DNA from: Saccostrea echinata
Lineage: Eukaryota
Reading direction: 5' to 3'
DNA: 64,000 nt
Assembly: GCF_033153115.1 (NCBI RefSeq)
Contig: NW_026889803.1
Location: 61,008,001-61,072,000 of the forward strand
This document shows positions 11,327 to 59,023 of the stretch, in pieces. The position numbers were made by a program, and so were the translations under genes. A model generated the notes under the pieces. It made no database searches, was not told the origin of the DNA, and was given only the letters and a program-made list of their open reading frames with translations. The stretch's first letter is position 1, and each line of letters opens with the position of its first letter.

Positions 11327-11379
<53 letters not shown>

Positions 11380-11841: not shown

Positions 11842-12114
11842 TGTACTGCCTCAGCCTGTAATCGTGACTGTCTAAATTCGATCATCATTATGTAGTTGCA
11901 AACAGAAATATTTATTGGAAAGAGTGTTATTACAATCAACACGTTAGTTTTTAATATTTTTAAATTAGGATGCTCTGGAAATTCTTGGTAAATTATATAT
12001 GAATTATGTCAACTACAGCTAAAAATATCCCTATGGCCCTGTGGGGCAGGAATACGATTGCTTTGTTCTTATAAGTGTTTCATACCAAAATCGATAAGAT
12101 TTAATTTTCCAGAA

Positions 12115-27100: not shown

Positions 27101-28273
27101 GATTGATATGTTCTATTTTCTTTTGCGGATGAATTGACTGACACTTATGGTTGTGTAAAACCAGTTATGATCCGTAGTATGGCTTTCGACCTTCGGTCTA
27201 CGCCATAAAAATGACTTAACTTTACTGACCATCATATATTCATAGTCCAGATCTCCATTTCCCAATCCATTAAAGCTGGTCATAGAAAGCCCCATACGGT
27301 TAGGAATAGGTGTACTGGGGTTACTCTGTAAACGTTGACGCTGGTGTGACATGATGATCAGCTGACAATAATGGAGCTGCTTGTTCCTGGCATAATCCCA
27401 AGCAGTGGCATTAAACTTGTCCAGCAAGTTCAAATCGGCTGTATAAAAATGGTCAAGTTTATAAATATCATATTCAATAATTCTTTGTGTTTGAATGTTA
27501 TATTCTCTGTATTTTTTTCTTCACCATTTTTTTCTGGTATGTTTATGTCATGTTATCACTTCTTGAAATAAATTCACATCTTCAAGAATTTCTCTAAATC
27601 TTGTTCTTTAATCATACTTTCCAGTAAAAAAATACATTAGTTATGCTTTAACATGTTTTTATGGATGTAGTGAAAAATTTTAATTTGATGTGTCAAAATT
27701 CACAATGTACCTCCATAGTCTAACAAGTGGTTGATGACATCACCATGCCCATTTATAGAAGCCAAATGTAATGCTGACCGATCATTGTTGTCACGGTCCA
27801 CTACTCTTTGTCGACCAGCTATCTCTAAAATTATCTTACAGGCCAGTAAGGAACCTAAATTAATGTAGAAATAGTGTTCACACCACGAAACAATGAAAAA
27901 CAAAAACATTACCATAAAAATTAATTCATTTAGCAATGAGATTATATTCATTGCAATAAATACTAGGTATATATATGTAAATCAAACTTAGTAACTGCTC
28001 TTCATACATTTAAAAAAAAATTATAAGATTACATTTTACAGAATAATTGTTGATTCGCAGAAATAACCTGAAGTAGAGTGTGATAAAATTACCTGTCTCT
28101 GCAGCCAATAACAGAACTGTTTTACCATTTTCATCTTTTATTTTTGCTGTTTCTGAGGTCAGTAGAGTCTTAAATCAAAATAAGCTCAGCAATAAATAAC
28201 AAAATAAAGCTAATTGTAAAGCTGAAAAATTCATTTGAAATACAAGTATGTGTTGTTCAACCATCACTTCATC

Positions 28274-28313
<40 letters not shown>

Positions 28314-30874
28314 TATTTAAGAAAACATTCTCAGATTGCATAAAATCATGCATTCTGCTTTATTACTAGACCCAAGGAAAGGTTTTATTTTAATTAAAAG
28401 ACACACAAATGAACATTTAATAAGTTAAGTGTTTTTTTTTCACCTGTAAGCACTCCAGTGGTTCTGTTCTTCTGACAGACCAATGCATCCATGTCCTCCC
28501 ATTCAGATCTCTCTCGATACCATCAGCCTCATCCACCGTGAAGTTTGGGGAGCTACTCAACAGTTCAAAATGTTTGATGTGATCTAGCCGACATGCCCAC
28601 ATACAAGGTGTAATGCCATCTTTGTCACGGATGTTAACATCGGCATTGTGCTGAATTAAGTACTGTTATAAAAGAGAAAATTTGTGCTTATCTTGTACTC
28701 AGTACCTTATTGACAAATAATGAAAGCAGTTAGACAATGCTGATATTACTGACAATGGATCAATTACCTCCTAATTAAAGCAATTACTATCTCACACTTA
28801 ATTCTATTTTCTATCAGTCATGATAAGTGATAATTAGCCTTCTGATATATCTACAGATGTGAGTATGTTAGTGTGTAGGTTATACCTGTATTTTACAATG
28901 TTTTAGTATATTGTTGGTATCCCTGCCCATCTTCACAATTCTCCATAAATTTTAATAATTGTTTTAACCATTCTTTTTTTGTATGTTTTGCCATTTACTA
29001 TAAGTGTTCACAACATTTTTGCCCCAGGAGTCCCTAGAAAAGGTGTGATTTAAACCTTGAAATTGAATCATTATAACTGTGACTCCGGAAAGGAGTTTTT
29101 GGTTGGAGAATGACAAAATATCTTCCTGGATAATGAAAATGAGCTGAAGTTACCTTTCAAAACATTTATAAATCTATGAACATCTTGTTCGCCTTAGCTA
29201 CCACATACCTTTAAACACTCTGTGGATTTCGTTGTCACTGCCCAGTGTATGGGTGCTCTCCCATGACTATCTTGTATTGTAAAATCTCCACCATACTGTA
29301 GCAACAAACTGAGAGCCACATGGTTAGCATCATGGCAGGCCTGGTGAAGTGCAGTGGATCCATCTGAAAAAAAGTCCTACCTTGATCATTTCTAAATAAT
29401 TTATATCTAATTGTCTGTAAAACCTCCCAACAAATTGGGTAATACTAGAGATATTAAGTATAAATAAAGATGTTATTTCATTGTGCATAAATTGGTTCCT
29501 TTCAATAAAATATCTTAGGTAATTTTTGGTCAGAGTAGATCTTTATCACTTAGTAAATTTTTAAGTAATTGATCTATAAAATATTATGAATGACTATGGT
29601 GTTTTAACCAATAAAAGTAATAAATAAAGCTTTCATTTGGTTCACTTCCATACTTTTTTGGCAAAGAGCCAATAAGATACTATTTGTACATTCATAAGGG
29701 CAATATCCTGCAAATGACCAATCAAGCATGTTCTTCGTAGATAATGATTATCTAAAAACTTCAATTATTATTATCAATCATTCTGATTCAGTATATATAT
29801 ATATATATATATATACCATGGCCTGTGATGTTAACATCTGCCTGATTTTCCAAGAGATAGTTAAGCATTTCATTTTGATGAAAATGTACAGCATAAGACA
29901 AAGCTGTTCTTCCTATTCCATCTTGTTCATCAATGCAATGAGGATCTGAGAAAATGTAAATTTTAAACTTAAAACAAAAGAACACATATAATTATACTTA
30001 TCAACTTACTTATTATTACCTTTCAAAGCATTAAATTTATCATTAAACATATTTACACAAAGATAATTTGTCTTTCATTGAATTCTAATTGGACAGTATA
30101 CTCTGTTTAAAACATGAAAAAAGTATGTTTAATACAAGTTATTTTTTTTTATACCACAGCAATGTCAATAGATAATTAATATACCTCCTTGAACAAGCTC
30201 CATTAGCAAGTCCGAGTCTTTCTGTTTCACTGCTTGCATTATTGGAGGCAATGTAGTTATATTCATGCTTTCATCTGTCATTATTCCCTGTAAGTTTTTC
30301 AGGTTGTCTAAGTTCACCCATTTCCACTGAAATTTGTCAGGGGCATCAACAAAAGGAGTCATTGGACTAAAGCCCCTAGCTGAGAGCGATAATGTTTTTT
30401 CTGCATTCTTTTCATGAGACCTGGTCTGCAGCATTCGATAGTACTTCTGCATATGTAGAAGGGCCAAATTCAAGGTGTCCCTTAGCTCAGATCCTTCTGC
30501 GTCTTCATTGAGTTTCAACAGAAACTCATTAATGAATGCAGCGGCTTTTTGGAAATCTTAAAATAAATACATCATTTGTTGAGGACAACAATGCTTATTC
30601 CCACTGTCGCATTAAAATGGAATGTTCTTAAACATTTTATTTGATACAATTTCAATGCAATGTACACCAACCTCTAAAATGAAGCGTTTAAATAATTATA
30701 AAAATAGCATCAATAATGAATTTTACATTTCTCATAATAGTGTTTTTATCAGTGCAATGTATTAAATTATGTTCAATTTTTTCTGAAATTTTATATCGTT
30801 AACTATTTACATTTGTTTACAAGATTGGACGTGAGTTGCGATCCTGAGTGCTTACCTTTCCGTTTGATACCCAT
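19907..30874 (-). CDS. Ankyrin-repeat protein (inversin/ANKRD55-like architecture) with long Pro/Ser-rich tail, 15 exons, ~989 aa
   Basis: GT-AG exons with consistent phases: 30874-30856, 30556-30185, 29945-29817, 29363-29209, 28662-28444, 28168-28093, 27854-27711, 27438-27230, 26301-26089, 25390-25282, 25070-24859, 24536-24167, 23676-23361, 22472-22187, 20047-19907. Ankyrin motifs GRTALSYAV, GSTALHQAC, GRAPIHWAV, GITPCMWAC, GRTWMHWSV, GKTVLLLAA, DRSALHLAS. First and last exons are least certain. Confidence 0.82.
21123..21622. mobile_element. Tc1/mariner (pogo-like) MITE
   Basis: TA-CAGTAAAGCTGGTTTA ... TATAACCGAGTTTTACTG inverted ends; internal GATATA(A/G)CGAA repeats. Confidence 0.7.
23966..24140. 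mobile_element. Short Tc1/mariner-type MITE
   Basis: ~24-bp imperfect TIRs CAGTTAAATTTCGGTATCTTGAAC / GTTCGAGATAACGAGGTTTGAGTG, TA on both flanks. Confidence 0.75.
25147..25256. repeat. Intronic 27-bp tandem repeat x4
   Basis: TACAGCACGTCAAGATTTAAAGTGGAT units. Confidence 0.9.
25811..25961. repeat. Intronic 29-bp tandem repeat x5
   Basis: AAATGCTGCACAGATCACAGCAATCAATC units. Confidence 0.9.
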
Positions 30875-32109: not shown

Positions 32110-36458
<4,349 letters not shown>

Positions 36459-40523: not shown

Positions 40524-41204
40524 CAATAGTCTCTGCCCACTGACGTCAGACGCAAAGACAGCCGCACGAGATTGACATACATATCAAGGAATCAACTCAG
40601 CTAACTATTAAAGAGTTATCACAGAGAAAACAATTAGAAATGTAAATATTGTTTGGTAAATGCAGCCATCAGAGGGATCAATATCTGTACCACTGTGTTC
40701 TGATTTCAATTACAAAAAATTCATTATGTAGGACTAGTAATCTCTGTTTTGGCCATAACTTGAGAATCTTTCAATCACAAAATATTTAATAACATAACAA
40801 TCTGCATTATGTACAACTCTGTCTGTACTTTAAAACAAATGAAAAATGTCCACAAAATCAAACAAAATACATTGATCAATATAATAACAAAAATACTTTT
40901 TACATGTATTACAACTTAAAAATTTGAATATACTTTATATGTTAGGAATCAACGTACAATCAAATTGTACCAATCACTTCAAAACAAATATAAAATACAT
41001 GTAGCAGTTTATTGAGAAATAACAGGAATGTGAAGCCCACTTATCACAAGGGAAAATATACACTGCCATGTGGAATTGGCCAAGTTCCCACCTCTCTGCG
41101 CCTCCCTTCAAGATGTTTCTACAGCTGCCTGCTAACTGAGATCGGGGACTTGATGCACAATGAATGCTGGGATTGTAAATCACACAAGGAATTATGGGAA
41201 ACTG

Positions 41205-44200
41205 TCATGTGGTGTCTATCCGTATCATCCTTAACTTGTAATTGTCTGCCAGCACACATGCTGCCTCGTTGGATCCACCACAGTAATGAGAAGAAGAGAA
41301 CACAGTCATCAGTCTACCCTGCTGCTGAACCTTTTTCAGAAACAGAAATAAATGCTTATTAAACACTGGGTCCACCACAAAAATGTAATAAGGACATTGT
41401 GTTGTAACTGTACAATACAACTCGTAAGTTCATGTGTACAAAAATTAATGCATAGATCTTCCTCTGACTAACATAAGACGAATATGAACAAGGAATAAGT
41501 ATTTACCCAAACTTAAATAAACATTTTACTAACTTTGATGTAAAAATTAAAATTGCGACTTAGATAGATGTAACAGAATGAATAAAACTGGTAATTACAT
41601 TATCCATTTTATTTGGTACAAAGAATTTATATTATTACTTTGTGTACAGGAGCATCAACATTATTTTACTGAAATGTCCTCCTGTATATTTAAAAAAAAA
41701 ACTTTGAAACCTTACATTCCAAACCAAATGAACAAACAAAATTTATATCATATGCAACAATACAGATCATTTTTAAAATTCATAATAATTACAAATTTTG
41801 TCAGCAGTTTTCTAACAGGGCAACACTGTACCCTGTACATATATGTGTAAAATAATCCTTGCATACCTGAAAGCCATTTTCCTGCACCTCATGAGCTCTT
41901 ATAACATGAGACAAGCCATTTTTGTCCAAAAATGACATTAGAGCCTCACAGCTAAAGAAATATGCTGTTCCCCGCCTTGTGTTGTAAATAAATCCATTGT
42001 GCTCATTTAAATCCTTGATATTATCTGGAGTCATCAAATCCATGCTACAATGTACATGTACATGAAATATGAAATTGTTCTGCACTAAAAAATTTACACT
42101 TCAAATTATCAAAATTCAACTACAGCAAAATATGATTACCTGAAGTAAAACTCTGTGTACATATAGATGTCCATTATCTTAGACAAGATCTAACCCACTC
42201 TCTATCCCACTTACCTGACAGGGTCACTCCACATGATCTAATAGGTCCTCACCTGAAAGGGTCACTTCACATGATGTCTCAGGGCAGAGGATCTCAATCT
42301 CAACTCACCAGGCTTTGAATTCTCATTTTTAACTCACCAGACAGGGTCTTCCACACAATCTTCTATGCTAAGGATTCTCAATCTCAACTCACCTGACAGG
42401 GTCACTCCACATGAATCTTACAGGCCTGTGAACCCTATTCCACTCACTTGAATAGGTCATTCCACATGTTCTCCCAGCCAGTGGATTCTTACCTGACAGG
42501 GTCATTCCACATGATCTCCCAGCCAGTTGATTCTTACTCACCTGACAGGATCACTCCACATGATATCCCAGGCCAGTGGATTCTTACTCACCTAACAGTG
42601 TCACTCCAATGATCTCCCAGGCCAGTACAGTCTCACTCACCTGACTGGGTCACTCCACATGATCTCCCAGGCCAGGGGACTCTCTATTTCTGGATCCTTC
42701 AAAGGCACTGGAATCTTGTTTATGTTCTCAATATTAATGTCAGAACAGGGTATCCCTCCATGAACACAAAACACCTAGAGAAAACAGTAAGTCACCACTT
42801 AATGAACTATAATCATAGCTTACAACCAGAAATCCACTCTGAAAGCTGTAAATTTTCTTAAAATCTACCCAATGCTGATGACTAGGAAATGCACCAGTTG
42901 GTAAACATGGCAAATGATATACTGTAAGGGTTGAGGTTGGGGAAATTGATCAATACAATATGTACTGAAAATGTTTTAAAAAAATAAAAGAATAACAAAA
43001 ATGTGGAGGAATGTGGAAATTTATAAATAAAACAAAAAAAAAATCTCTTTAAAAATGTGTACTTATGTAGTACAAAGTGAAAGATGAGGACTCTGCTCTG
43101 AATCTTTTACAGCAGGTAAGATAATTAATTTTAAAAACTTAATTTACATGTACATGTGATCATCCTCACTTTGTACATTGTAATAGCAAAGTTTTCATCA
43201 GACCTTCACCTATCTTTGCTAATTATTCTTGTAAAGCTAGAAATCTATCCCATTATCAAGTCCACATCCAGCTGACATACAAGACCAAAGGACAAGATAG
43301 GCTAAGACCCCTTTTTGGCCCCTGGTTTGGGGTGTCTTTTAGAATGTTGCAACAGTTTATCAATTAAAAACCTGTTGTCACCTCTGCCACAAAATGAGTA
43401 TTGGTTCTAAGTTATGGGATACACAGAGGTCACAGGAAGGTCAGAAAATATGTCAATTTCCAAATTTTCTCATTTTTATGCAAATTTTTCTTGATTTAAC
43501 AGCAGATTTTGGTTCAGAAAACAAAGAGCACAAGCTTGCCTATCTGCCAAATTTATATATTTCATACACAAGTATCAGAAGCATCTTATATATAAAAATC
43601 TCAGATAGGCAAGCTTGTGCTCTATGTTTCTTGAAGTGAAAAGTTTCTCAAATTTGATGGAATTCGACCAGAATTGAGGAAATTCGGGAAAATGTCCTAC
43701 TTTTGCACCCTCTTGTGGCCTCCTTGTAAACTTTGAATCAAAATTAGTGCTGGTTTTAAAACAAGCATCATTTTAAGTTCTTAACTGCAAACTATCACAG
43801 TTTTAACTGTGTTCTGATTTTTACATCATATAAGGGGCCAGATTCAGCTGTTACCATACCTTGTCCTTTAGAATCAATATGTTTAATATGTTGCCAAAAT
43901 TTGGAGCATTATATGACAATAACACACGCATATATATATATATATAAAGATATGGCTAGATACATGGACAGATAGAGTGGTAACTGCAGAATATGAAATA
44001 TGTGTTCAATTACTAAGAATTTGAAACCCATTTCCAAAATATACTTTATCACAAAACTTAAATGTCTTAAGAATTAACCTTATCATCCACAGTAGCTGCT
44101 ATTGGCATGGCATCAAAACAGTCATTGACTGCCTCCCAGACCTGAAGTCCCACTGACTCCCCAAACTTCTGTATACACTCACTGTAATAGAGAATATTTA

Positions 44201-47200
44201 TACAATTATTGTAACCATGCGTATATACACTTGTAACCATGAGTAGATTTACATGTATACACTTGTGTAACAAAGAACAGATATAAACCCTCACTGTAAC
44301 AAAGATAAGATTTATACACTTGTTGTAACCATGAGTAAATTTACATGTATACACTTGTGTAACAAAGAACAGATATATATACACTAGATACACTCACTGT
44401 AAGCAAAACAGATCTATACACTCACTGTAATTTACAATGTTGATACGACTTGCACCCACTCAATAATACAGAACTCATTTATACACTCAATACAGATTTA
44501 TACACTCACTCTCAAACAAAACAGGACTAAACATTATGCCATATTTTAAGAGAAATATGACCTACATAGCTAGAACTCACTTTTTAAATGAGAACATTTC
44601 CTGTACAGATCTGAGTTCATGGTTTCCTCTCAAGAGATAAAATTTGTTCTGTGCAAGCATCTTTTGGGCAAACAAATAGGAAATTACCTAGGTAAAATAA
44701 AAGATGTCAGTGGTTATTACACAGAATTTTTGCTGTTATTATAAAGAAAACCAAGAGTTCTAGATATTGCCTTTAACATCATATCTTTCACCTTTGACCA
44801 ATACCTGAATCTGACTTTTCCCCCCCTATCAGGGCTATCAAAAGATTAGAAACAGACAGCACTTTTACAAAAATAGGAGGTATTGTTGAAGCAATTTTAA
44901 TTAAATATGTTATCAAATTTTTCTCCATCAAATATTTTGGCTGGTACAATCATGATTTCAGCTGGGTAAAAGTACTGGGTATTGGCAGATTTTGAAAGGC
45001 CTGCCCTATTAAAACTAATAACTATTAAATGAGACTATAAATGATGTTGATTACTGCATCTGACAGGTTTATCTCTAACCTCTACTCCATATTCCCCTCG
45101 ATCCACGTAGTCCCCCAAAAACAAGAAAGAGGCTGGTGTTAACAATGGTCCCATCCTCCATAATGCTTTCTCAAAACACACCAAATCCCTGTAGTTCCCA
45201 TGGATATCTCCTATAAACACAAGTATATGACATTTTAAATCTGCCTTCATTGTAATCTGGGAAATATGATGCAAATTAAGATTTATTCAAAAAAAAAAAA
45301 AAAGAAAAAAATTCATCTAGGCTATAAAAAAAGAAAAAAAGAAAGACAAATACGGTTTATAATCAGACACAGTTTATATCAGATGGATAAAATATTTATG
45401 GAAACCTTTCATTACATTCATCATATTATTTGTGTTAATGACTTGTTGCAAAACATAAATATTACTGTAAATATAGAAGTAAATTTTACCAAGAATGTAG
45501 ACCGGAGATTTAAGCTTTACTAATCGTGGTTCCAGACACAGTGAGTCCTTCAGTTCACGACACAAGGTCAGCAGACATTTAGCGAGAGCATTGGTGTCCA
45601 CCTGTCCCCAGTCAAATCCAGGCTGCACAAAAAACAAGACCAATCAATTTTATGTTTATGTACAAGAAAGATTACTTTTGAAATGTGTATCTAAAGGGAC
45701 AGTAAACAAGTTGATTATTATCTATTTATCACAACCTTTGCTGGCCCTCCATTATCTCCCTTGATCGCTCTCTCAAAATACCTCAGACCAGTCAACATTT
45801 CATTAGGGTGAGATCTCTGTTAAATAAATAGGCATATAAAGTATATGTAAATCATTCATTCATGAAATTTTTTTTTCTTCAGAACAGTATAGGACTTTAT
45901 GTTGCTGACTTAGAAGTTGCCTTAACAATGCTGTATAGGACTTTATATTGCTGACTTAGAAGTTGTCTTAGTAATCTCATATAGGACTTTATGTTGCTGA
46001 CTTAGAAGTTGCCTTAACAATCTCGTATAGGACTTTATGTTGCTGACTTAGAAGTTGGCTTAACAGTCTCTTTTGCACATTTTGCTTTAAGGTTTACTTT
46101 CCAAATTCATCTCCATTTTGAAATACACTTACTGCATTAAATGAGTCTATTGAAGGCATCCTCTGAAATCGTGAAATGTCTCCCTCTAGATGACAAGCTG
46201 CACTCTCAGTCACAGCTGGGGTTCCTGAAGAAGAAACACACATCAGAAAAAAATACAGTACTATTTTTTCAACTCACAGAATAATTCTGACTATGCATTA
46301 TACCTTGTAAATCCCAGAGTTTGATGACATCTGATAAGACCCCTGTCCGTCGTACTTTGACTGTGTGTGTGGCAAGTTCATATCTGATCTGGTGGTGGAA
46401 TCTCCCTGCAGATAATGGACGACCTTCAGGAAGCTTGAACACTTCCATTTCTGTATCTGTCAAAACATATTGATATAGACTAATCCGTTTAATAACAAAA
46501 GTTTACAACTCCTGTATGCATGTACATGATTGTTAACTCCAAGACTTCATGAAATCTTCAAGTTAGTAAAAAAAACATTTTGCTTTATAAGTAATTTTTA
46601 AAACTTCTTATAGTTTCAAGACTAGAAAAACATGTGCAGAGAAAACATATTTATCATGTTCTAACCATGCATGATTTTGCATAGATTATATAGGTAAACT
46701 ACTGTGTGTCCCTATTTACTCAGATGTGTCCCTATCTCTAATAATGGATGGACAACTTCATTGCTGATGGGAAGGGTTGAAGATTAAATCTGAGTCTATA
46801 TATATACAAGCAACACCGTATATTTTTGAGAGAAAAAAAGCCAATAAGTGGAATTACTATGGTGATTGATTTTTTTTTCTTTAAGTGTTTGGAAAGCTCA
46901 ATGCCCAATATAACACTCTGTCTTTGATCCTTAGCTCTCAGAAACACCACTTCTCAAAGCATAAATTATCTCCAGAATAGCAAGAGTTCTCTCAAACAGT
47001 ACTAAAAGAAGACAGTGGAAATTGTTTTTTTAGTTTTCTAGTCACTTGTTTTTAAACTGAGATTTACCTGTAGCATTTAATTTTCTTGGTGGGGATGATT
47101 TGACAGAATCCAGAAGTTTGGGACGACATCTTTTTAAAGGTGGTTCCATTGTCTCCCCAGTGTGATTTAAATGGTTCTCATTCCTACAATGATGTACTAA

Positions 47201-50200
47201 GATCAGTATCACTCTAAACTCCTTTGATGAAATCAAACACTAGTATATTGCATGAAATAAACTTAAACTCTGTAGATATCACATGGTACACCTTGTTACT
47301 TAATAGAGCAGAACTCTTTTTTTTATTTAGACACAACACTCATCCAGTAAGAGCTGAACAGGAATGACACCCTTAGTATACTGAACACATGTCCTTCAAA
47401 ATTTTAGCTATATTCTCAACTTTAACAATTACAATATATCACCTATCATTCATGTGTAGGGTAAAAGTCATTCCATAGAATTTCATTTATATACATCCCC
47501 CACCCCTCTCCTATACTCGCTTTTAGCTCACCTGAGCTGAAGGCTCAAGTGAACTTTTCTGAAATTTGTCAGTTCTCTGCTGTTCTAGTTGTCATTGTCA
47601 TTATTGTAAACTTTTTACAATTTCATCTTCTCCAGATCCACTGGGCCAATTTCAATCAAACTTGGCACAGAGTATTCTTGGGTGAAGGGGACTGGGGTTT
47701 GTTCAAATGAAGGGCAACACTGTCTTCCAGGGGGAGATAATGGAGAAATAATGAAAATCAGATGGGGTAATTTAAAAATCATCTTCTACAGATTTTATTC
47801 TACAGATTAAGTCAGTGTCACAGTCACACTTGACTGAAGTTATCTGAACTGTAGATCTACATTACTCATCCTTTAAGTCCTGTCAAACATGACTAGGGTA
47901 ATCTGAATTATAGTACAATACTCACCCTTTAAGTCCTGTCACACAGTCACACAGGACTGGGGTAATCTGAATAGTACAATACTCACCCTTTAAGTCCTGT
48001 CACACAGGACTGGGGTAATCTGAATAGTACAATACTCACCCTTTAAGTCCTGTCACACAGTCACACAGGACTGGGGTAATCTGAATAGTACAATACTCAC
48101 CCTTTAAGTCCTGTCACACAGGACTGGGGTAATCTGAATAATACAGATGTTCCTCTGAATTTTAGTTGTCCTACAGCTGTCAAAAATTCTCCTAGAGGGA
48201 GCTTGTTCTTCGTTTCATTTCCAAACAACCTATACATAGACAGATTTCACATCGCCATCATTAGAGTCAAGTTTGGGCAATTTCAACTGCATTTTTTAAA
48301 TGAGATATTATGGGCACACATTGAAACACTCACTTGGCACTTTTCTGAGCATCTTCATTAACTGCTTCTTCATCCAGAGATAATCCTTTGATTTTACGTA
48401 TGTCTCTAACCATACATCTTAGAAAAATAGAGGGTAACTACCTTAAACCATTTTCTATCTACAGTATATTATTTAGAGATTAGCTATGTTAAACAATTTA
48501 GAAAATAGTTAGGGCTATTCCAGGAAAAATTGTATGGGGGGGTTGGAAGGCACTTTTATTTTTACCCCACCACCCATACATTTTTAATTACCTTCTACCC
48601 CACCCCCCATCAATTTAAAATTGCTTTTGATACAACCACCCATCTAAATTTAAAAAAAAAAAAATTGTGTCACACATATATATGCAATAAAATTTTATGT
48701 ACTTTTTTCAGGTATTGTAATTTATCTGACTTCGAATGAGTGTTGGGTTTTGACATCTATCCAACCAGGGCCTGTTTTACAAAAGAACTTATGACTAAGA
48801 TCAAAATGTTATTATGCAAATAAATTTCTTTTTTGCATTACTTTAAAAATGTTTTAAATCTTTTTGAAAAAAAATAAGATGGTTTTATGCGAACAATTTT
48901 TAACAGAAACATAAGTTTTGTAAGATTTTATGAACAGCTAAAGTTTTTAGTCTTAGTAATAAGTTTTTTTGTAAAACAGTTCCCCATGTTCCTGCTACAG
49001 CTTAAAAAAATATGTTCCTTTAAGCCTATGATACACACCACTGAAAGCCTTTATTATAGTGATTTGTATATCTGTTCTGATGCACGACTTTGTAGTCTGT
49101 AAAGCTTAGGTAAAGCTTTTACAAGTATGTATACACATGTACTAGTAGAAATGACATTCTTACAATTAATTAAAATTAATATTGTAAATTATATCCTAGC
49201 TATCCTTAACAATTGTTGTTCACCTTGTTCATAACAAAATGATTCCTGCTTTTTTTTTTTTTTGGTGGTGGTGGTGGTGGGGGGGGGGGGGGGGGGGAGG
49301 GGGACTAAATTTCTGACTTCTGTAGGCAGTGTCTGTGAAGTGAAAACTTTGATTAAAAAAATATACTTAATGAATTCTAAATCCCATCTAACAACTTAGA
49401 CCATTGGTGCATACAAGTTCAACAAGTTAACACTTAACAGGTTAACATGGTTAAGGACTGGCATGTTTTTGACATATAAATATATTTCATATTGTTTTCA
49501 AACTCATATCTCATCTTCCTTTTACTCTGTATGTGGTATAAAGTAAAATATTTGACTTGCAAACTCCGTAGTCATGCTCTAAAACGTTCATTATCAGATA
49601 CGTTTTTTCTACTTTCGGTTTAAAAATAAAACGATCTTTCTGATTGTTTCTAATATAATTTAATTTACCAATGTAATCATGTTTGATTAAACTGGTGAAA
49701 AGAAACTGGATCAGGGAGTCCAAAGCACAACTAATCCGTTTTCCAATCCCCAACTGTCATTGCAGTCACAGTTGCACATGCTTTTATAGTTATCTGCCCT
49801 TGTTTCCGTTTTGTTCGATTCTACTTTCACTTTCAATGTAAACAACACTTTACAACTGTTTAGGACGAAAATATCAGTATTTACCGATTTATACAAAATG
49901 AGAGGAAAGAAGTACTTTGCACTTGATTATTTGTGAGGGTAAATACAACCACCCATCTAAAAATATATCGAGTGAGGACAACCACCCATACAAATTTAAT
50001 TGCTCCAGACCCACTACCCATACAAAAATATATGAAGTGCCGTCCAACCCTCCCGTACATTTTTTCCTGGAATAGCCCTTATGTTAAACAATTTAGAGAT
50101 TAGCCATTTCAATTTTCATTATATTTCATGTAAAGTATATATTTTTAGTGAACTTTGATAAGGTACATGTAGGAAAACATATGTACACAAGTTTGCTAGA

Positions 50201-53200
50201 CCAGATATACAGATATACACCAGGTATCTCCAATGAGACTGATGCTCAACTGGATTGTACTTATCATAGCGAAAACAAAGGCAACAATTGGACTGAAGAT
50301 GCATTTTTTTTTTTACAGAATCATGTGGTCTAATGTTTTTTGAATTTGTACAGAACTTTATTAAAATCCAAACTAAACTAGAAGAGGGGGCGTGCTTTAA
50401 AATATTAGATAAGTCCATCATTTACAATAAATTTTCATATTTTATTCCTGATTTACAATGCCAACACTTTCTACAATCAGTAAAAATTTCATAGATATAC
50501 ATGTACATGTGTGTGCACCTTGATGAAGTCTATTGAAAAATGTTTTGTTCAAATTAAAAGAAATGAAAAAGAAATACAAGGGAAGAAACATTATGAAATT
50601 ATTAAACACATTAACTTTTCTTTTATTAAAAAAAACAAGGCAAATTCATTCATTGATATTTTAAAAATCAACAGAATTTCCATTCTCATCTTAATATTGT
50701 CTACTTATGCCCCATTTTTTCCAAATTATTTGAACGACCATAATGACTATCAAGCAAAGGCTTTTCAAGATATTGGTTGGAATTTATTGGTCTACCAACC
50801 AGCCCTCAAACCAACTTTTGGAAAGCCACAATTCTTGAGACTTTGAAACCAATTTAGAAAATCATCAACATACTTAAATTCCTCAAATTGCAGGAAACCA
50901 TCTACGTTGTGATCATAAAACCTGAAGATATATCGACATCTCATTTCTGCTGGCATTCCACCATGTTGTGTAGAGGGTTCGAGGGCTGCCAGGCCAACTA
51001 GGACATCTTTAAACTGTAGAATCCTCTTCTTATGCATATCAAAAGACCTAAAATTAGCAATGAATTCTTAATGTTGTATCAAACATTGAAAAATTAACAG
51101 CTTGTCATGAAAGCAAAGTTAAACAATATTAAAAGAAGAAATTGTTTATTCTTGAAATTATATATAACTAAATGTATTGCAAAACATTATATAATATACT
51201 CCAAGTCATTTTTGTATTCATAGTTAAAAGGATTTAGAGCATCAAGTCTTGTGAATAAACAGTTTATATTGATAACTGATTTTTTTTTTTTTTTACCTAA
51301 ACAGGGCATATTCCTCTTATTCCCTAGAGCACAATGAATTACCTAAACAGGACACCTTCTTGGTCCCCATTTGCCTCTACACAGGGCATATACTTGATCC
51401 TCTTTTGCCCCTAAACAGGGCATCTACTTAATCCTCAATTGCCCCATAGTGTATGATTCTTACTTAAACAGAGTATCTAACTGATCCTCTTTCGCCCCTA
51501 AAGAGGGCGTTTACTTGATCCTTTTTTTGCCCCATTGTGTACAATGAATTAATGTATTGTTTTTTACCTAAACAGGGCATCCACTTGCTCTTCTTTTGCC
51601 CCTTTGTGTACAATGTACTCCTTGAATACAGTTTTGTTCATCATAGAACACGGTAGACACCAATCCATAAACTCTTGATACAGAAGGTCTTGCTCTTCAA
51701 AAAAAAAAAAAAAAAGAAAAAAAAAAGGAATTATTTTGACATTTCAACATACTTCACCTACTCCAGTAAATCATGGAGAGTTTTTCATCAGAAGTGATCA
51801 TTAGGGAATTTTGAGGTGTTAATTTTCACTGGGCTTCTTGCCAAGTTTTTATAAATTTCTTTTTGACTCATATTACAAACCTTTCTTGCCGAGTTTGGCC
51901 GACTTGACCACAGCCTCCTGAGCAGAAAGCTGTGACGTATCCTCTTTATCTGTGTCAATGTATTCTGCTCTCATTTCACTTAATACGTTCATTGTCAAAG
52001 ATGCTGAAAAAAAAATTAAAAGGGGAAATATTTTACCCATGTTATATCATCATACTACACTGACTTAATCATAGATTGTGTTTGCTGACAAGGTCATTGT
52101 TTCGGCCATAGAACTTTAAACAAGACTGTTGATATCCTTGTTTCATCAACTAAACAAGATCTCCCTGGTATCTGGTATAACTAACCATTATTGAGGTGTT
52201 AAGCCTATTGAAGATAGGTATAACTAACCATTATTGAGGTGTTAAGCCTATTGAGGATAGGTATAACTAACCATTATTGATGTGTTAAGCCTACTGATGA
52301 TAGGTTTAACTAACCATTATTGAGGTGTTTAGCCAGATTGATTGGCTCCAGTCCTAGGAGTCCTGGATCTGCATGAGTCTGTTGTTCCATCTCTTCCACA
52401 TTACACCAGACAGCATCATCACAACACTACATCAAAATCAAAGCTAGTAACGTGATCTCCTCCACAGTATACAAAAGGTGTCAACAAAAACCTGTAGCTT
52501 CTTTAGAAAATGTTTTTCAGATCCTTTAAAAATTTTTCTATAACTGCTTCTGATGATGACCATCTCTGGTCGAAACCAGTCAACAAAATAAATCTACTGC
52601 CGCATTCTCACAAAGTGTTTGTGATATATTTTGTCTTTAAATTTATATTATCTATGCAAATAATGCATTTTATATCAGAAAAAAATACAAACTTTATTCT
52701 TAAATGTTTCTTCATCCTCATGACTATGATAACTAATAATTCTGTAATCATTAATTTGTTTATTTTAATTTTAAAAGAGTATTGATATTTGCTCCTCTTT
52801 AAGAATGTACCTTATTTTTTTTTTTTAATATGCTATTAATTTTCACTTTGATCATGGTGATCATGGGAGGAGATTTATGTAGATACAAAGTTTAGGGCCA
52901 CAGGTTTTTAGATGCTTTGTTTACCGTGTCGCAGTCCTCTACAGGCTGAGTCAGGAAAACAATGTGTGTGGCAGTGGGACTGGAGGTGAAATGGTAGAAA
53001 ATCATCTTGATGATCCCTTTACATGGAGCTAGCTCCTGGCCAGTGACCTAACAATAAGGATATTGCAACAACTAAAATACACATATAGGATTCTACAATG
53101 ATCAAACATTTGGCAACTCCATCTTTAACATTCAAAAACATTAGCTATGTCTTGAATGATCTCAGGTTAATTTAGGGATGCACAATTTCATCGGTATACC

Positions 53201-56200
53201 GGTACATCATGATTTTTTTTATTGCATGACACATATTGGAATAAGGGGCCCATTTTACAAAAGAAATTATGACTAAGACCAAAAAATTTAGTTGAATGTA
53301 AAATTTTGTAAGAGTGATGATTCTGTTTGAAATTGCTAGCATAAAAATATACTGTTAGGTTCTTTTTAAAAAGATTATAACTGTTTTCAAATAATTGTAA
53401 AATAGGAAGTAATAAGCAGAATTAAATTTTGGTCCTAGTCGTAAGTTCTTTTGTAAAACGGGCCCAAGGAGACTAAAATACCAGTCTTAGCATCCAAACA
53501 TGCTTTATAAATAATAAAAATAAAACAAGAGGCCCAAGGGCCTTAATGGTCACCTGAGTATAATGTAATAATCCATAGATTAAAACAAAATAAGCTGATA
53601 AATAAAGCTACACTGTATGTACATAAATTGATGTATTTAAAATTAAGCGCAATCACTGGGTATGGAGTTGTTTGGGTAATCATGAATTAACGCTACATAC
53701 ACTCGTGCTGTGTATTACATTATTAATGAATTCTTAGCGGTATTCATGAATTAGTGCATCACTGTCCTTGCCACAGCCGTTACAATACGTAGCCTGCTTT
53801 ACATGTAGTAAGTACACATAAGTATGTTGCCCAAAAGCAAGAGAAATACGATGATCAGAGATCAGCAAAATATTAATTTAGTACTCTTAAAGTTTATCTA
53901 TTCATTTGCCTGTACTTTCCCCCATATGCGGACTAAACAAAGCAATAGAGTACTATTAGTTAATATTTTCCATTCCCCCTTGCATTGGCCTCTCTTAGTC
54001 TTTGAAAATTATTTGTTGTACAAAGATACAGTATTTTTTCCCCATTTTCATTTATCTACTATTTAAAAGTTTACTTGACCATTTAAAACTCTGAAAGTAC
54101 TTTTGTATTGTGATATTTCAGATTTTAAAGTACCGGTAATATATAAATTTGCTGCCACAAATTGTAACATGTTTGTTTGTGCATGTAGATGTAAGTAGTT
54201 GGTAGTTGGCATGTAGATGAAGTAGTAGAGGCATGTTACAACAATTGGGTTCTAAGGTACCTGTACACTGTTCAAAGTAAATTTAAATAAAACAAGTGCA
54301 TGCAATCAATAAAAATACATTTATTAAATTGATAAGTATATATTTAATACAATATACAGATAGGGCCATAATAAAAAAATTCCTAGATTCTCATCCCAAC
54401 TTTTTGAAAAATTGAGGTGGGCGGGCGGATTTTATATATTTTATTTTTTCCATCGTGCAGATTTTGTGTTCGACCTAATCATTCGGTGCAGATTTATCTT
54501 CAATGCCTAAATAAATGCATATCTCTTACTACTCATCATCACCAATCTTTCATAACCAATGATCCCTGTTTAATGGGCTGTTTAATACATATTACAGCAA
54601 TAACATCTTGTCAGCTGTCAAATTCATGCCAACATTCGAAGGATTCAAAACAAAAGTTGAATGGTAGTTGAATATATACCGATCCCGATCAGAATCAAGA
54701 CAAAGAAAAACAGAAATAAAAAAAAATTGAGGCGGGGTTCAGGGATTTTTTTAGGGTCTCTCTGGGGCTGAAATTCGGCCCCATTCCCAATGCTGAAAAG
54801 TGCATGTTTTTCCCAAAATCATACCTAAAAATTCCCAATATGAAAAAAGTATTAAGTTGTAAATTATTAAAATAAAATAATGACAAAAAGGTGTTTATGT
54901 TCTCTATGTGCGATGTACGAGCCATCCGAGGACTTCTGAGAAGTTATTCAGAATACTATGGATGTTTGCATGCATACTTTTTAAAGCAGGATTGATGTTT
55001 AAAAATTGAAGTCGGGATCGTTATCTAAAAAATAAACGTGCATCATGTCAGTCTCTCCAGTTTGCCTTGGACGGTAATTTTCAGGCTGGGTTGAATCGCT
55101 CTTATTCTTATAAATTGGTCAAACAATACCTATTAACCACTCATCTGGAACAAACCCACTATCAAATGTTATTTTAAAGAACTTCTTACATAAAGGTAAA
55201 AAAGATGACAATGTATAAATCAGTGTAAATATGTTCATTTACAATATTATCATACCCTGCGGCTTTGCCATTTTTAAGCTTCTGAACTTCAACAGCTGCT
55301 ATTATTTCATATCACTAAAGCTGGTTTAGGCCAGCTTCATACTATAAAAAATAAGAAAAATTATTAAATATTTGACTTTTGCTTGTTTTTTCCTATTTAT
55401 TTGTATGAAGATATTTTTCCCAATTTCAACCAAATATCGCTATTTTTCCCAATCTTGACGGCCCCGGCCCCTGGAATCAAGGGGTAAAAAAATCCCTGGG
55501 GTTAAAAAATTAGGGCGGGCGGGGATGAGAATCTAGGAATTTTTTTTATTATGGCCTAAGGTATAACGTCCCACTCCACAGTCTTTATTATAAACAATAA
55601 TAATACATGTAATCATATTCAAATGTCACAGATACTCGGTGATAGGTGCTACAGTCTTTAGGTGTCAGATGCCACAGATGGTATCGATGTGCCGTCATGC
55701 AATGGCTTCTCCGTAAAACAAATGTTTACATGAAATCGAAGAAAGTGGGTATTGACAGCATTTGAGAAGGGTTAGAAAGCAAATTTTAGTAGAGAAATGT
55801 TGTTTGAAGTGAATGCTGACGAGTTGTATTGAATAAGCTGTGGGTAAAAACAAATTGGTTGATTTCTCAAAAACATGTTGCATTCCTGTTTTCTACGCTA
55901 ATGCATAGCTCATGGCTTGGTCAATCGAGTGATTTCTATTGACATTATTGATAAAATTGCGAACTCTTGTGGTGATATACACTAAGTCGAAGGTGAGACT
56001 GTAAACAATTTGTTTCTTTCTCTTTGTAAAAATCTGATTTGGCAGTATTCTCTTTACTGGAATTCTGTGGTGATCAGCATGCAACAAAGTTAACCTTTCC
56101 CTTAATTATTATGGCGTCATTATTTTTAGAATATGTATATACTGAATGGATGTGTGGATAAGAAATGGGAAATATATTTCAACAGAAAAATGTACCTCTG

Positions 56201-56360
56201 TTATTAATTTATTTGCGACACTCTGAAAGGTTTCTACATCATGGCGAAGTGCTGTTGGCATCCATAGCCCCTTCCCATCTAGGGTTGTAAGTAAAAGTCT
56301 TGAATCCCTTTTCCTTGGGATGAGAACACTAACAAATTCTCGTGATGTTTGACCTGCCAT
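41205..56360 (-). CDS. Atypical PPP-family Ser/Thr phosphatase with N-terminal Nudix-like and EF-hand domains, 19 exons, ~796 aa
   Basis: Phase-consistent GT-AG exons: 56360-56196, 53047-52925, 52426-52315, 52003-51881, 51694-51568, 51047-50874, 48417-48334, 48229-48101, 47183-47068, 46456-46304, 46224-46133, 45816-45736, 45622-45490, 45210-45080, 44687-44581, 44181-44079, 42774-42641, 42044-41867, 41330-41205 (2391 nt). EF loop [12 protein letters not shown]; catalytic GDIHG, GDYVDRG, RGNHE, HGG, WSDP, RAHE, SSSHYC. Confidence 0.9.
42205..42640 (-). repeat. Tandem array of exon-17 end plus 5' splice site (~9 degenerate copies, mostly ~50 bp)
   Basis: Units resemble CTGGCCTGGGAGATCATGTGGAGTGACCCTGTCAG|GTGAGT. 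Confidence 0.9.
43287..43869. mobile_element. Foldback MITE, unclassified
   Basis: AAAGGACAAGATAGG / CCATACCTTGTCCTTT ends; internal inverted AGCACAAGCTTGCCTATCTG / CAGATAGGCAAGCTTGTGCT. Confidence 0.7.
44182..44515 (-). repeat. Degenerate repeats of 3' splice site plus exon-16 start
   Basis: TTACAGTGAGTGTATA-like motif (plus strand TATACACTCACTGTAA) at ~44285, 44388, 44415, partial at 44480, 44499, besides the true junction at 44172-44187. Confidence 0.7.
45887..46065. repeat. Intronic 43-bp tandem repeat x4
   Basis: GTATAGGACTTTATGTTGCTGACTTAGAAGTTGCCTTAACAAT units. Confidence 0.9.
47520..47790 (+). mobile_element. Helentron/HINE 5' fragment
   Basis: TTTTAGCTCACCTGAGCTGAAGGCTCAAGTGA terminus followed by one satellite-like unit (GGGCCAATTTCAATCAAACTTGGCACA...GTTTGTTCAAATGAAGGGC). 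Confidence 0.7.
47860..48100 (-). repeat. Tandem array of exon-8 end plus 5' splice site (4 copies, 53/61 bp)
   Basis: Units TATTCAGATTACCCCAGTCCTGTGTGACAGGACTTAAAGG|GTGAGTAT. Confidence 0.92.
48512..50078. mobile_element. PIF/Harbinger non-autonomous element, TTA TSD, with nested MITE
   Basis: TTA-GGGCTATTCCAGGAAAAA...TTTTTCCTGGAATAGCCC-TTA, inverted homology ~45 bp; nested MITE at 48768-48985. Confidence 0.88.
48768..48985. mobile_element. Harbinger-like MITE (nested)
   Basis: GGGCCTGTTTTACAAAAGAACTTATGACTAAGA ... TCTTAGTAATAAGTTTTTTTGTAAAACAGTTCCCC; second copy at 53245-53465. Confidence 0.8.
51290..51567 (-). repeat. Tandem array of exon-5 end, some units with the 5' splice site (~6 degenerate copies)
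   Basis: Units resemble GGGGCAAAAGAGGATCAAGTAGATGCCCTGTTTAG; GT retained at ~51463, 51342, 51296. Confidence 0.85.
52174..52314 (-). repeat. Tandem array of exon-3 end plus 5' splice site (3 extra copies, 43 bp)
   Basis: Units ...GGCTTAACACCTCAATAATG|GTTAGTTATACC; GT at 52271, 52228, 52185. Confidence 0.92.
52544..52592 (+). ncRNA. Minimal Penelope-type hammerhead ribozyme motif (probably degenerate)
   Basis: CTGATGA-T-GACCA-TCTC-TGGTC-GAAAC-CA-GTC followed by AATAAA; stem I weak. Confidence 0.55.
53245..53465. mobile_element. Harbinger-like MITE
   Basis: GGGGCCCATTTTACAAAAGAAATTATGACTAAGACCAAAA / TTTTGGTCCTAGTCGTAAGTTCTTTTGTAAAACGGGCCC. Confidence 0.82.
54363..55556. mobile_element. Harbinger-like non-autonomous element with nested insertion
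   Basis: GGCCATAATAAAAAAATTCCTAGATTCTCATCCC / GGGATGAGAATCTAGGAATTTTTTTTATTATGGCC-TAA. Confidence 0.85.
54740..55498. mobile_element. CAGGG-ended element with 5-bp TSD, nested in 54363-55556
   Basis: CAGGGATTTTTT ... AAAAAAATCCCTG flanked by GGGTT on both sides. Confidence 0.75.
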
Positions 56361-59023
56361 TTTCCCTTGTTACTACAAACGGAAACAGTGATGTTGTATG
56401 TCCTTAAACATTCTACATTTGATCGAGAGACTATCGTCACTTCCAAATTACACAAATCTAATGTAAAATACTGAAATCAGAGAGTATATATTTGGCAGCG
56501 TAAATCACTAAATGATATAAATTGGTTTCACTTTCATGACGACCAGTTTACCTTTTGGTCATACGTACTTCTGATGATTCGTAAAATTATGACACGCCAT
56601 TGTGCTTTAATACCTTTCATCATCATTAAGTAATTTTATTATTGAAATAAAATTATTTGAATTCTTTATATATCTTCATTTAGTTTATCGAGTTTCATTA
56701 TATGACGCGTCACCATTAAACGACAAGGTTAACAATATTTATTGGTTCACAAAACGAGAAGCGGGCACTAGCAAATTGTTGCGAAGCTAATCAATACCGA
56801 AGTCTAAGGTGCGAACAGGTGAGTGATGACTACATTCATATGCAAATCTGTAAAGAATTTAAAGAAATTGAACTTTCTATTTAAATTAAAGAATTATAAT
56901 AGCTTTCTAAGGAAACTACAAATATCGATAAAAAAAATTATGGAAAAAACCCCACAGAAAAAGGGCTTCAGAAATGCTCTCTTTTTATTCTCTATTGGTG
57001 AAAACTTTTGAGTTTGTAAAATATTGTAAAATGTTCCATAAAAATCCATTACTTAATTATAAGTTTAGGGGGAGTTTGATGGTGACCCGATAAGGAGACC
57101 TCATTTTCAACATTATGACCCCCCTCCCCCTCCCCATTTCTACCCCCCCCCCCCTTACCCATTCTTGGCTTGGGTCTGTGATTTCGTGAATGCAAGTGAG
57201 AATTTGGTCTTTATTTAGTGAATTATTTAAAACTTAAGAATTATGGTGAAACTAAAGTATGATTCAACTTGAACTAGAATGAAATGATGCATTTAATTGA
57301 TATCTATATATATATGATATGCACAAATATCTGTAGGCTATTTTATCTTGGTTAGAATTTAAAAATATATATAAACCAAACAAGGTATGGCTATTATAAA
57401 CAAATTACTTTTCATGTATGAAACCAGATAACAAAGGAGAATCAGCCAACTGGATCCACAGCAGCTGTTCTTGCACACCTTTAAATGATAAGTCTAGAGT
57501 GTACATTCACCTGAGATTTAAGTATGTAGCATGATGTTGCTTTTATATTTGATTAAAAAAAACTTTTAATTTCTCTCTTTTTTGCATTCTAGCAATATTG
57601 TCTACAGTTAAAAACTGAAAATATCTTTTAGAAACCATTAATAATACAGACAAGAAGAAAATTTATTAAGATGCGGTTTAATTTCATATGAAAAAGTACC
57701 TGGCCTATAGCACCAGATGATATCAGATCTTAGAAGAAGAAATGTTAGTGTTATTACAAGTGTTGTACAGTGTGTATTGCGAGCTTGAAATGATGACTAC
57801 ATCCACTTTCATTATTAAGTGACAATTTTTAATTGGTGCATATGCAACATGTGCAACAAAATGTGATTTGTTAATAATGAGTAGGCCATAGGTTTTCTTA
57901 CTGGAGCTGCAGTATGTGTGTTTGTACTCTATTATTCACTTGTTACTTAAAGTATACATATTATATGCTGCACTTAATGATTGTGACCTAGGAATCACTG
58001 CTTTTTATTTTTTACATTTCACACTTAAAGAAATATCTCTAAATGTGCTTGTAATTATGCCATGGTTTATCTTGTGTTTTATTTCTTTCAATCTAACAGA
58101 GATCCAGATACTGTGGGATACATTGCAAAGAACATTGATTTGTTCTATAGATAAGTCTGTCTGCTGTACCAGATAGCAGGAGATAAAAAAACATTAAGAG
58201 ATCAATTTCTTCACCTCAGTTTGTAGATGTGATACTTTATATGCATGCATTTACACAGTTAAAGGATCACTTAAACAATTCTGTGTAAATGTCTGTGATC
58301 ATAGATAAACAAATTAATTTCTATGACTGTTTATTACTTACAGATGAAGAACCTTTAAAAAGCTGATATTGATAGGGGTCTGTATATTGATGAGTGACTT
58401 CTTGTTTGTGCCAACACAAAAAGGAATTAGACTCTTTGGGTAGGGATGGGAGGGGGTGCTGTTGTATTAGCCTTGTATTGTTTTGTTTTACACTACAGTG
58501 ACAGTGTCTGAAGGGAATATTTCCATTCACAATAACTGTTCCTGGTGGTATTGGAAGATGAAGGAAACTGTTAGTGATTGAATGAGACTGATTCCTAAAA
58601 CTACTTTAATTTAGGTGCAGCAGCTACAAATATATAGCAAAGAAACATACACATGTACTATTGAATATAGTTGCATAATTGTACCGTGATCATTTTTTAA
58701 AATACTTATAGAACAATATTTACAATCAATACATATTTTGATTAATATTAAGTGTGTGGAAAGCTATGGCATTCAAAACACCATAACACAGAAAGGAGGT
58801 CAAAATGTTAAAGTATGCATTTTATTTTGATGTCATGCACAAAGATTGAATGCAGTGCAAGTGCAGCGTCATAAGCGAAAATCAAAATTCACACTCACAT
58901 TGAACAGAAGCTGTTGCAATGGCTCTTCCATTAATTGTAACTTATCCGAAGGATAAAACAGGGATTTTGAAATAATTAAATCACATTTGCAGACAAGGCA
59001 AGGAGTTAAAAAGTGTAAATTAT

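Follow-up and report, generated by a model that had tools for sequence, protein, structure and literature searches.

The usual account of PPP-type protein phosphatases in animals admits only a few classes (PP1, 2A, 2B, 4, 5, 6, and PPEF), and it treats the Bsu1-type enzymes as non-animal. EFPP, a protist phosphatase, is assumed here to be the apicomplexan PPP8. Kelch-less Bsu1-type PPPs with EF-hands are reported from an apusozoan, choanoflagellates, a fungus, and a stramenopile, and the list of new Bsu1 sequences in the same source has no animal row (Kerk et al. 2021, PMC8249667). PMC3137614 places the EF-hands of PPEF at the C-terminal side, and PMC11962071 describes them as releasing the PPP domain from autoinhibition in a Ca2+-activated enzyme. 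Plasmodium PPP8 has an EF-hand according to a statement in PMC2559854, and PMC10317984 presents it as an inactive pseudophosphatase scaffold and describes PPP8-type domains as inactive even after motif repair. The subject here is a gene on the minus strand of a 64-kb stretch of Saccostrea echinata DNA (the window, meaning the whole stretch analysed), which encodes the RefSeq 'uncharacterized protein LOC133172682' (XP_061163616.1, P0001) of 796 amino acids (aa). This oyster protein comprises a predicted Nudix fold, a four-EF-hand module, and a PPP catalytic domain in one chain, and represents an animal family with the same layout.

Domains of the oyster protein

The AlphaFold2 model (56-row alignment, no templates) has a mean predicted local distance difference test (pLDDT) of 80.4 and a predicted template modelling score (pTM) of 0.50. 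It resolves into three blocks of high confidence, with linker stretches of low confidence at aa 349-406 and 427-465. The PPP domain forms the C-terminal end of the protein, without a C-terminal regulatory tail. It satisfies the motifs GDxHG, GDxxDRG, GNHE, distal HGG, and RxHE, and scores 114.9 bits on Pfam Metallophos. Among the metal- and phosphate-binding residues, D539 and H541 are present in 55 of the 56 rows, and D571, D574, R575, and N603 in all 56. H604, H656, and R720 (56 rows each), H747 (55), and Y771 (53) are further catalytic residues; rows short of 56 at these columns are alignment gaps. The initial annotation had described a PPP domain with all metal-binding motifs, and this is borne out, each metal ligand being present in 55 or all 56 of the rows. 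None of the metal ligands is lost, nor is either phosphate-binding arginine or the equivalent of Tyr272 (PP1 numbering). Against calcineurin A, PP1, PP5, and RDGC, the modelled domain scores Z 32-34 (root-mean-square deviation (rmsd) 2.5-2.8 Å, 282-286 residues aligned), and against ApaH Z 16.6. An SSSHY(C) loop replaces the SAPNY(C) of the PP1 type, and 78 of 89 members have GDxHGN, whereas 118 of 119 comparison proteins have GDxHGQ. The complete catalytic site makes it very likely that the oyster protein is an active Ser/Thr phosphatase.

By comparison of the predicted structure and of profiles, residues ~158-340 make up one whole NCS/CBL/calaxin/CnB-type domain with four EF-hands. The module matches calaxin at Z 15.6 (rmsd 3.4, 174 aligned) and AtCBL2 at Z 15.0 (rmsd 4.5, 176 aligned), and its profile aligns across the length of NCS-1 and neurocalcin (E 4e-8 to 5e-8). 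One degenerate and one canonical EF-hand had been proposed for this region; the canonical hand stands as EF3, but the region holds four hands and not two. EF3 has the canonical pattern D-x-[DNS]-x-[DNS]...E12 in 47 of the 56 rows; these include molluscs, chelicerates, and echinoderms. EF1 is disabled by Pro189 (53/56 rows), and EF4 has no ligand pattern. Proteins of the NCS/CBL/calcineurin B type usually have two or more Ca2+-competent loops, and by this measure the oyster sequence falls short, EF3 alone being canonical. Recoverin structures with Ca2+ at EF3 alone exist, as given by PDB entry titles. The Nudix and EF half modelled alone reaches a pTM of 0.77, and the two domains are therefore predicted to pack as a unit.

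The N-terminal region had been interpreted as a pseudo-Nudix domain, and structure prediction followed by fold search agrees with this. Residues 5-135 match Nudix structures at Z 14.8 (rmsd 2.6 Å, 124 aligned), with about 25 Nudix rows matched, and a separate mussel model repeats the match (Z 13.0, rmsd 3.9 Å, 128 aligned). Foldseek with the whole oyster model returns PPP structures only. The Pfam NUDIX cut-off is passed by one nemertean member, P0062 (30.0 vs 21.1 bits), and P0039 and P0040 match below it. The oyster protein, whole or as its Nudix exons alone, has no Pfam NUDIX match, and an NCBIfam scan gives weak matches only. Active Nudix domains carry the box Gx5Ex7REUxEExGU with metal-binding glutamates. 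RExxEE occurs in none of 118 proteins with a match to the profile of the Nudix region, and the partial box Gx5Ex7R in 5 of them, so the catalytic box is dead; judged by these residues, the domain is likely inactive across the family. Few parts of the protein are as weakly conserved as the Nudix region (0.33-0.47 per 20-residue block vs 0.85 in the best EF and PPP blocks). For the sensing of nucleotides or phospho-metabolites, also proposed by the initial annotation, nothing positive was found. The N-terminal half is not a chance product: searched alone against 6597 candidates, residues 1-400 have 84 relatives at E<=0.001.

The linker contains a basic motif (K363 in 46/56 rows, R/K364 in 46/56, R/K366 in 55/56) that fits the monopartite pattern of a nuclear localization signal (NLS). 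R457 (55/56), S460 (56/56), and F464 (56/56) lie within a low-pLDDT stretch, and this part of exon 11 is a candidate regulatory phosphosite or autoinhibitory segment. Kinship of the R-x-x-S-I-D-x-F linker with the plant BSL linker was considered and is not used. Profile-profile comparison gives a probability of 1.6% vs 1.1% for a control stretch, and the motif is found in 45 of 56 family rows vs 6 of 104 Kelch-BSU rows.

Phylogeny and range of the family

The catalytic-domain tree comprises 76 domains and 278 columns (LG+C20+F+G4). The reference rows for PP1, PP2A, PP4, PP2B, PP5, and PPEF are partial, assembled from genes of the oyster itself and labelled by class motifs. PP2A and PP4 represent the PP2A/4/6 group, and PP6, plant PP7, and Plasmodium PPP8 are outside the tree. 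One clade (100/100), on a stem of 1.52, unites the family with 15 relatives that lack the EF module, cryptophyte and Rhodelphis proteins among them. The PP1 and PP2B clades (100/99 each) do not contain the family, and PPEF groups with PP5 at 100/95. The initial annotation could not assign the architecture to a standard class; the tree agrees, as the family is separate from PP1, PP2A, PP4, PP2B, PP5, and PPEF (PP6 and plant PP7 not being in the tree) and, in the best tree, falls inside no characterised subfamily.

In the best tree, the sister of the family is the clade of BSU1/PPKL and EF-Bsu1 (98/98), with a joint node of 99/96. Against this kinship, support for the joint node falls to 87/93 when the tree is cut to 26 of its 76 rows. 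Six approximately unbiased (AU) tests, uncorrected, reject only family + PP1 (p 0.031). The family is not rejected with EF-Bsu1 (p 0.138), the choanoflagellate rows (0.153), PP2A/4 (0.203), PP2B (0.332), or PP5 (0.332). The catalytic domain thus lies outside the Bsu1 clade in the best tree, yet the AU test does not reject a clade of the family with EF-Bsu1. No fixed sister group is adopted, given the lower subset support and the five of six alternatives not rejected.

The EF module gives a second line of comparison. Six EF-hand Bsu1 proteins match the family EF profile at 31-67 bits, and with a second EF profile four of the six score 39-64 bits per domain vs 35.8 for the best PDB NCS protein. 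EF-hand Bsu1 proteins share the motifs of the family after EF2 and after EF4. The same motifs are recognized by eye in the Thecamonas, Nannochloropsis, and Cryptosporidium rows of Table S4 of Kerk et al. (PMC8249667). The presence of the same EF-module subtype in protist EFPP and EF-hand Bsu1 proteins shows that the order of EF-hands before PPP was already known. The likeness to EFPP in the position of the EF-hands, pointed out by the initial annotation, is retained and amended: the common subtype implies kinship, which is more than likeness. In contrast to the EF module, the Nudix region has no match among the 119 comparison proteins (118 BSU1-type, one calcineurin) by profile search.

The simplest reading is that an old combination of EF module and Bsu1-related phosphatase split into a Bsu1/EFPP line and the line of the animal family. 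The animal line would have gained its Nudix domain before the corals and bilaterians separated, and the EF-less algal members would need losses or domain shuffling. Four proteins of this kind, P0130, P0133, P0149, and P0144 (from the cryptophyte Hanusia, Rhodelphis, and others), have a family-type catalytic domain with no EF or Nudix match and are nested among animal rows at 88/98. P0130 also has a piece resembling the linker strand of the family. Such algal-side members may reflect an old origin with loss, or transfer.

The layout of the oyster protein is found in bivalves, gastropods, a chiton, a brachiopod, nemerteans, an annelid, rotifers, a priapulid, chelicerates, and a millipede. Among named relatives it is also present in crustaceans, a beetle, a moth, a tardigrade, hemichordates, echinoderms, and corals. 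A survey of taxa thus finds the layout from corals to molluscs, arthropods, and echinoderms; the family spans at least ten animal phyla and is strongly conserved. Among the best 150 representatives at 50% identity, 89 have the EF module and PPP domain, and 34 of these 89 also score on the Nudix-region profile, some of the 89 being fragments. A further 54 have the PPP domain without an EF match, and some of these are also fragments. Pairwise identity is below 50% among dozens of fast-evolving members (P0106-P0233), a hint of expansions in some lineage. The named matches of a word-based, limited search, in which many matches have no species name, contain no chordate, nematode, or Drosophila member, and absence from chordates and nematodes cannot be concluded from this. 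Data within PMC3137614 give 7-8 core PPPs each for Drosophila and eight other insects, all of standard classes.

Database labels of the relatives are 'uncharacterized', or the mislabels BSL1 homolog, pef-1-like, and PP12-like. No description of a Nudix + EF + PPP protein or of this animal family was found in the literature searched, phosphatome surveys covering sea urchin and sea anemone being outside the search; the word 'Nudix' has 0 occurrences in PMC7016017. It is fairly probable that the family has no published description as a subfamily. EF-hands before PPP are known from protists; the animal family, its Nudix domain, and its separate catalytic clade are probably new. The family adds a further animal PPP class, and its carriers include farmed molluscs, crustaceans, and insects.

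Proposed control by Ca2+ and its alternatives

The oyster protein has no C-terminal tail of the calcineurin or PPEF type, and control must therefore come from the N-terminal half and the linker. The preferred reading, with even chances of being right, is a single-chain PPP phosphatase whose N-terminal half folds back on the catalytic half and which is tuned by Ca2+. Ca2+ binding at EF3 would move the EF module or the conserved linker (aa 410-481, with an invariant R-x-x-S). The moved module or linker would alter access to the active site, an effect that calcineurin B and the PPEF EF-hands achieve by different means. The pseudo-Nudix domain may be a scaffold or targeting surface without hydrolysis, and the basic motif at aa 363-366 may take the enzyme to the nucleus. 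Ca2+ tuning, if real, would give animals a third way, beside calcineurin and PPEF, of linking Ca2+ to dephosphorylation, and one contained in a single expressible chain.

Docking of aa 1-345 on aa 405-796 scores 0.53 vs 0.01 for the best control, which is weak support. The runs agree in at least 69% of contacts, and the partners have a pLDDT of at least 79. Of solved complexes, 51 of 78 reach the docking mark, as do 2 of 108 mismatches; for eukaryotes, the figures are 39 of 65 (solved) and 2 of 126 (unrelated pairs). Passes at or below 0.60 comprise just 5 of the 78 solved complexes, yet all 4 passing mismatches (of 180). Docking of the N-terminal half on the catalytic half is somewhat favoured, and an effect of Ca2+ on activity in molluscs is as likely as not.

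Several observations weigh against the Ca2+-tuned, folded-back enzyme. EF2 passes the loop pattern in 1 of the 56 rows, and EF3 fails in 9, corals and rotifers among them. The highest conservation of the EF module is off the Ca2+ loops, at aa 241-260 and 321-340 (mean 0.85), and these blocks are as conserved as the catalytic core. One of three docking runs scored 0.21, and the pTM of the full-length model leaves the relative placement of the domains unfixed. The cryptophyte and Rhodelphis proteins of the same catalytic clade have no EF module, and apicomplexan PPP8 domains are described as inactive in vitro in the text of PMC10317984. Ca2+ regulation is plausible, with one loop, lost in those nine aligned members, as its sequence basis.

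The alternative that survives best, although clearly the less probable one, is an active phosphatase with a structural or substrate-targeting EF module. EF3 would then be always occupied or dispensable, and control would pass through partners and phosphorylation of the invariant linker serine. The single canonical loop of four and its loss in nine rows fit this alternative, as do the degenerate EF3 loop of three aligned choanoflagellate BSU1-type proteins, the conservation peaks off the Ca2+ loops, and the position of S460 within a low-pLDDT stretch. Its weak points are the EF3 ligand positions, complete in 47 of the 56 rows across molluscs, chelicerates, and echinoderms, and the recoverin structures that bind Ca2+ at EF3 alone.

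It is unlikely that the pseudo-Nudix domain is a binding-only nucleotide sensor (for ADP-ribose, NAD, Ap4A, or RNA cap) that gates the phosphatase together with Ca2+ in an NrtR-like manner. TRPM2 is a further precedent for a nucleotide-sensing Nudix domain. In favour of a sensor, the fold is kept from corals to molluscs, W33 and P35 are retained in 51 of the 56 rows, packing of the domain on the EF module is predicted, and the fold search lists the regulators NrtR and AraR at Z 11-12. Against a sensor, the fold matches of the oyster and mussel models single out no Nudix subfamily, the region has the low conservation given above, and it is scored in only 34 of the 89 distant EF + PPP representatives. 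A broader picture is improbable to a similar degree: an overlooked animal PPP class as old as the coral-bilaterian split, sister to plant BSU1, acting as a nuclear phosphatase and coincidence detector of Ca2+ and a nucleotide such as ADP-ribose. In that picture, the class was overlooked because vertebrates and Drosophila lack the family.

A pseudophosphatase scaffold like Plasmodium PPP8, or an enzyme for small phospho-metabolites instead of proteins, is very unlikely: the long stem (1.52), the GDxHGN and SSSHY replacements, and the failure of motif repair to restore PPP8-type domains in the text of PMC10317984 would suit it, whereas the retained metal ligands, both arginines, and the Tyr272 equivalent, and the far closer match to protein phosphatases than to ApaH, oppose it.

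Gene structure and comparison with known systems

The RefSeq protein mapped to the DNA gives 19 exons (Table 1). Of its residues, 795/796 match the window exactly, and the single mismatch is an intron-split codon. All 18 intron donors are GT, and the exon lengths total 2391 nt, equal to 796 codons and the stop. Every motif quoted by the initial annotation is present at the locus on the minus strand. The EF-hand exon (exon 6) has at least one match in the oyster genome, and its search gives 48 proteins at E<=0.001 among 51 candidates, with XP_061163616.1 at the top.

One 2959-base contig of sequencing run X5 spans exons 6-19 with 13/13 introns removed (CT..AC ends on the + strand), and the proposed joining of EF and PPP exons is thereby supported by one spliced contig. 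Run X4 has 3 of the exon 6-19 joints, and X1 and X3 have none of those listed; the four runs are presumed to be RNA, are not on record as RNA, and were compared with no DNA run. The X5 contig has 847 bases 5' of exon 6, where exons 1-5 need 650, which fits their joining to exon 6 without proving it. In 16 Logan-derived relatives of the 56-row alignment, all three domains are on contigs of 2.5-4.8 kb. These contigs are best read as cDNA, because the gene is intron-rich. The initial annotation had named a lack of splicing between exons 1-3 and the phosphatase exons as a case against the proposed architecture. The joining of exons 6-19 is observed, and that of exons 1-5 is predicted by the RefSeq model and fits the spare X5 bases and the short Logan contigs of relatives.

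Four of the 18 introns (after exons 3, 5, 8, and 17) contain repeated copies of the exon end with its GT donor, mostly in tandem arrays with units of 34-61 bp. The X5 contig splices at the first donor for exons 8 and 17, and the spare donors could allow longer exons. A PP1 paralogue (L024, G000:C2:26992000-27001999) has a similar habit, with a WSDP-motif piece repeated four times at 75-bp spacing.

A putative first exon on the opposite strand, ~450 bases upstream of the ATG and ending in a strong GT donor, would, if genuine, form a head-to-head gene pair. In tail-to-tail orientation, ~4.6 kb from the 3' end of the phosphatase gene, is a gene for a conventional PP1 catalytic subunit; an origin by tandem duplication of this neighbour is not favoured by the catalytic-domain tree. 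Kv-type potassium-channel exons, with a T1-like exon in two near-identical copies, and a multi-exon ankyrin-repeat-like gene with a proline-rich tail were recognized by eye in the window.

Table 1. Features of the phosphatase gene and of its surroundings (window positions).
Feature	Residues (aa)	Position	Strand	Content
Phosphatase gene	1-796	56360-41205	-	19 exons
Exon 1, coding from ATG	1-55	56196..56360	-	first half of pseudo-Nudix, degenerate Nudix box; WMPTALR from 56264
Exon 2	56-96	52925..53047	-	pseudo-Nudix domain
Exon 3	97-133	52315..52426	-	end of pseudo-Nudix domain
Exon 4	134-174	51881..52003	-	link and first helices of NCS-type module
Exon 5	175-217	51568..51694	-	EF1, disabled (Pro189 in 53/56 rows)
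Exon 6	217-275	50874..51047	-	EF2 non-canonical, EF2-EF3 family signature, EF3 canonical
EF3 canonical loop	262-273	50914-50879	-	within exon 6; DHNVDG from 50914
Exon 7	275-303	48334..48417	-	mapping and X5 contig
Exon 8	303-346	48101..48229	-	EF4 degenerate, highly conserved tail aa 321-336
Exon 9	346-384	47068..47183	-	predicted disordered linker
Basic NLS-like motif		47143-47117	-	within exon 9; PPLKRC from 47143
Exon 10	385-435	46304..46456	-	conserved linker strand aa 410-423; YELATH from 46382
Exon 11	436-466	46133..46224	-	low-pLDDT linker with R457, S460, F464
Exon 12	467-493	45736..45816	-	helix into catalytic domain; HPNEML from 45810
Exon 13	494-538	45490..45622	-	start of PPP domain
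Exon 14	538-581	45080..45210	-	GDxHG and GDYVDRG (from 45115)
Exon 15	582-617	44581..44687	-	GNHE (from 44627)
Exon 16	617-651	44079..44181	-	mapping and X5 contig
Exon 17	652-696	42641..42774	-	HGG (from 42762) and WSDP
Exon 18	696-755	41867..42044	-	R720 and RAHE
Exon 19, coding to stop	756-796	41205..41330	-	SSSHYC replacing SAPNYC
3' untranslated part		40834..41204	-	covered by spliced X5 contig
Donor repeats		52174-52334, 51342-51445, 47858-48145, 42387-42683		copies of exon end and GT donor
Possible first exon		56800-56825	+	strong GT donor
PP1 catalytic-subunit gene		~33500-36230	+	conventional PP1
Kv-type channel exons		892-1419, 5875-6882, 11242-11850	-	by eye
Ankyrin-repeat-like gene		~22100-30560	-	by eye

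NrtR and AraR: Like that predicted for the oyster protein, the Nudix fold of these regulators is used with little or no hydrolysis and is fused to a signalling partner. TRPM2 NUDT9-H and DBC1 are further non-catalytic Nudix domains. The Z values of NrtR and AraR tie with those of many ordinary Nudix hydrolases, and no specific kinship was found in the fold comparison.

PPEF/rdgC: The oyster protein and PPEF are both single-chain PPPs with EF-hands. In PPEF/rdgC the EF-hands are C-terminal, with an IQ motif and calmodulin, whereas the oyster protein ends at the catalytic domain. The oyster genome has separate PPEF genes and a separate PP2B gene. Two PPEF loci (L020-L023; G000:C27 at ~2.35 Mb and C30 at ~2.66 Mb) give identical translated exon matches on different contigs and are either a recent duplicate or an unmerged haplotype.

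Calcineurin: The pairing of a PPP domain with a four-EF-hand module of CnB/NCS fold is common to both, and CnA has the top PDB sequence and fold scores. In contrast, the oyster protein is one chain with an N-terminal EF module and one canonical loop, and it lacks the C-terminal CnB-binding, calmodulin-binding, and autoinhibitory tail of calcineurin.

BSU1/PPKL: This is the nearest named class in the catalytic tree, and Arabidopsis BSU1 is among the top PDB sequence matches (E 7e-69). The oyster family differs in its motif letters, in its separate clade on a long stem, and in the lack of Kelch repeats, which were found in none of the 17 members scanned with Pfam; its N-terminal half is predicted to fold as Nudix and EF.

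EF-hand Bsu1/EFPP: In these proteins and in the oyster family, the EF module is N-terminal to the PPP domain, while the catalytic domains of the oyster family (100/100) and of EF-hand Bsu1 (98/98) are in separate supported clades. Plasmodium PPP8 is a pseudophosphatase, whereas the oyster protein keeps every catalytic residue. The family ties animal signalling to the protist EFPP/Bsu1 branch.

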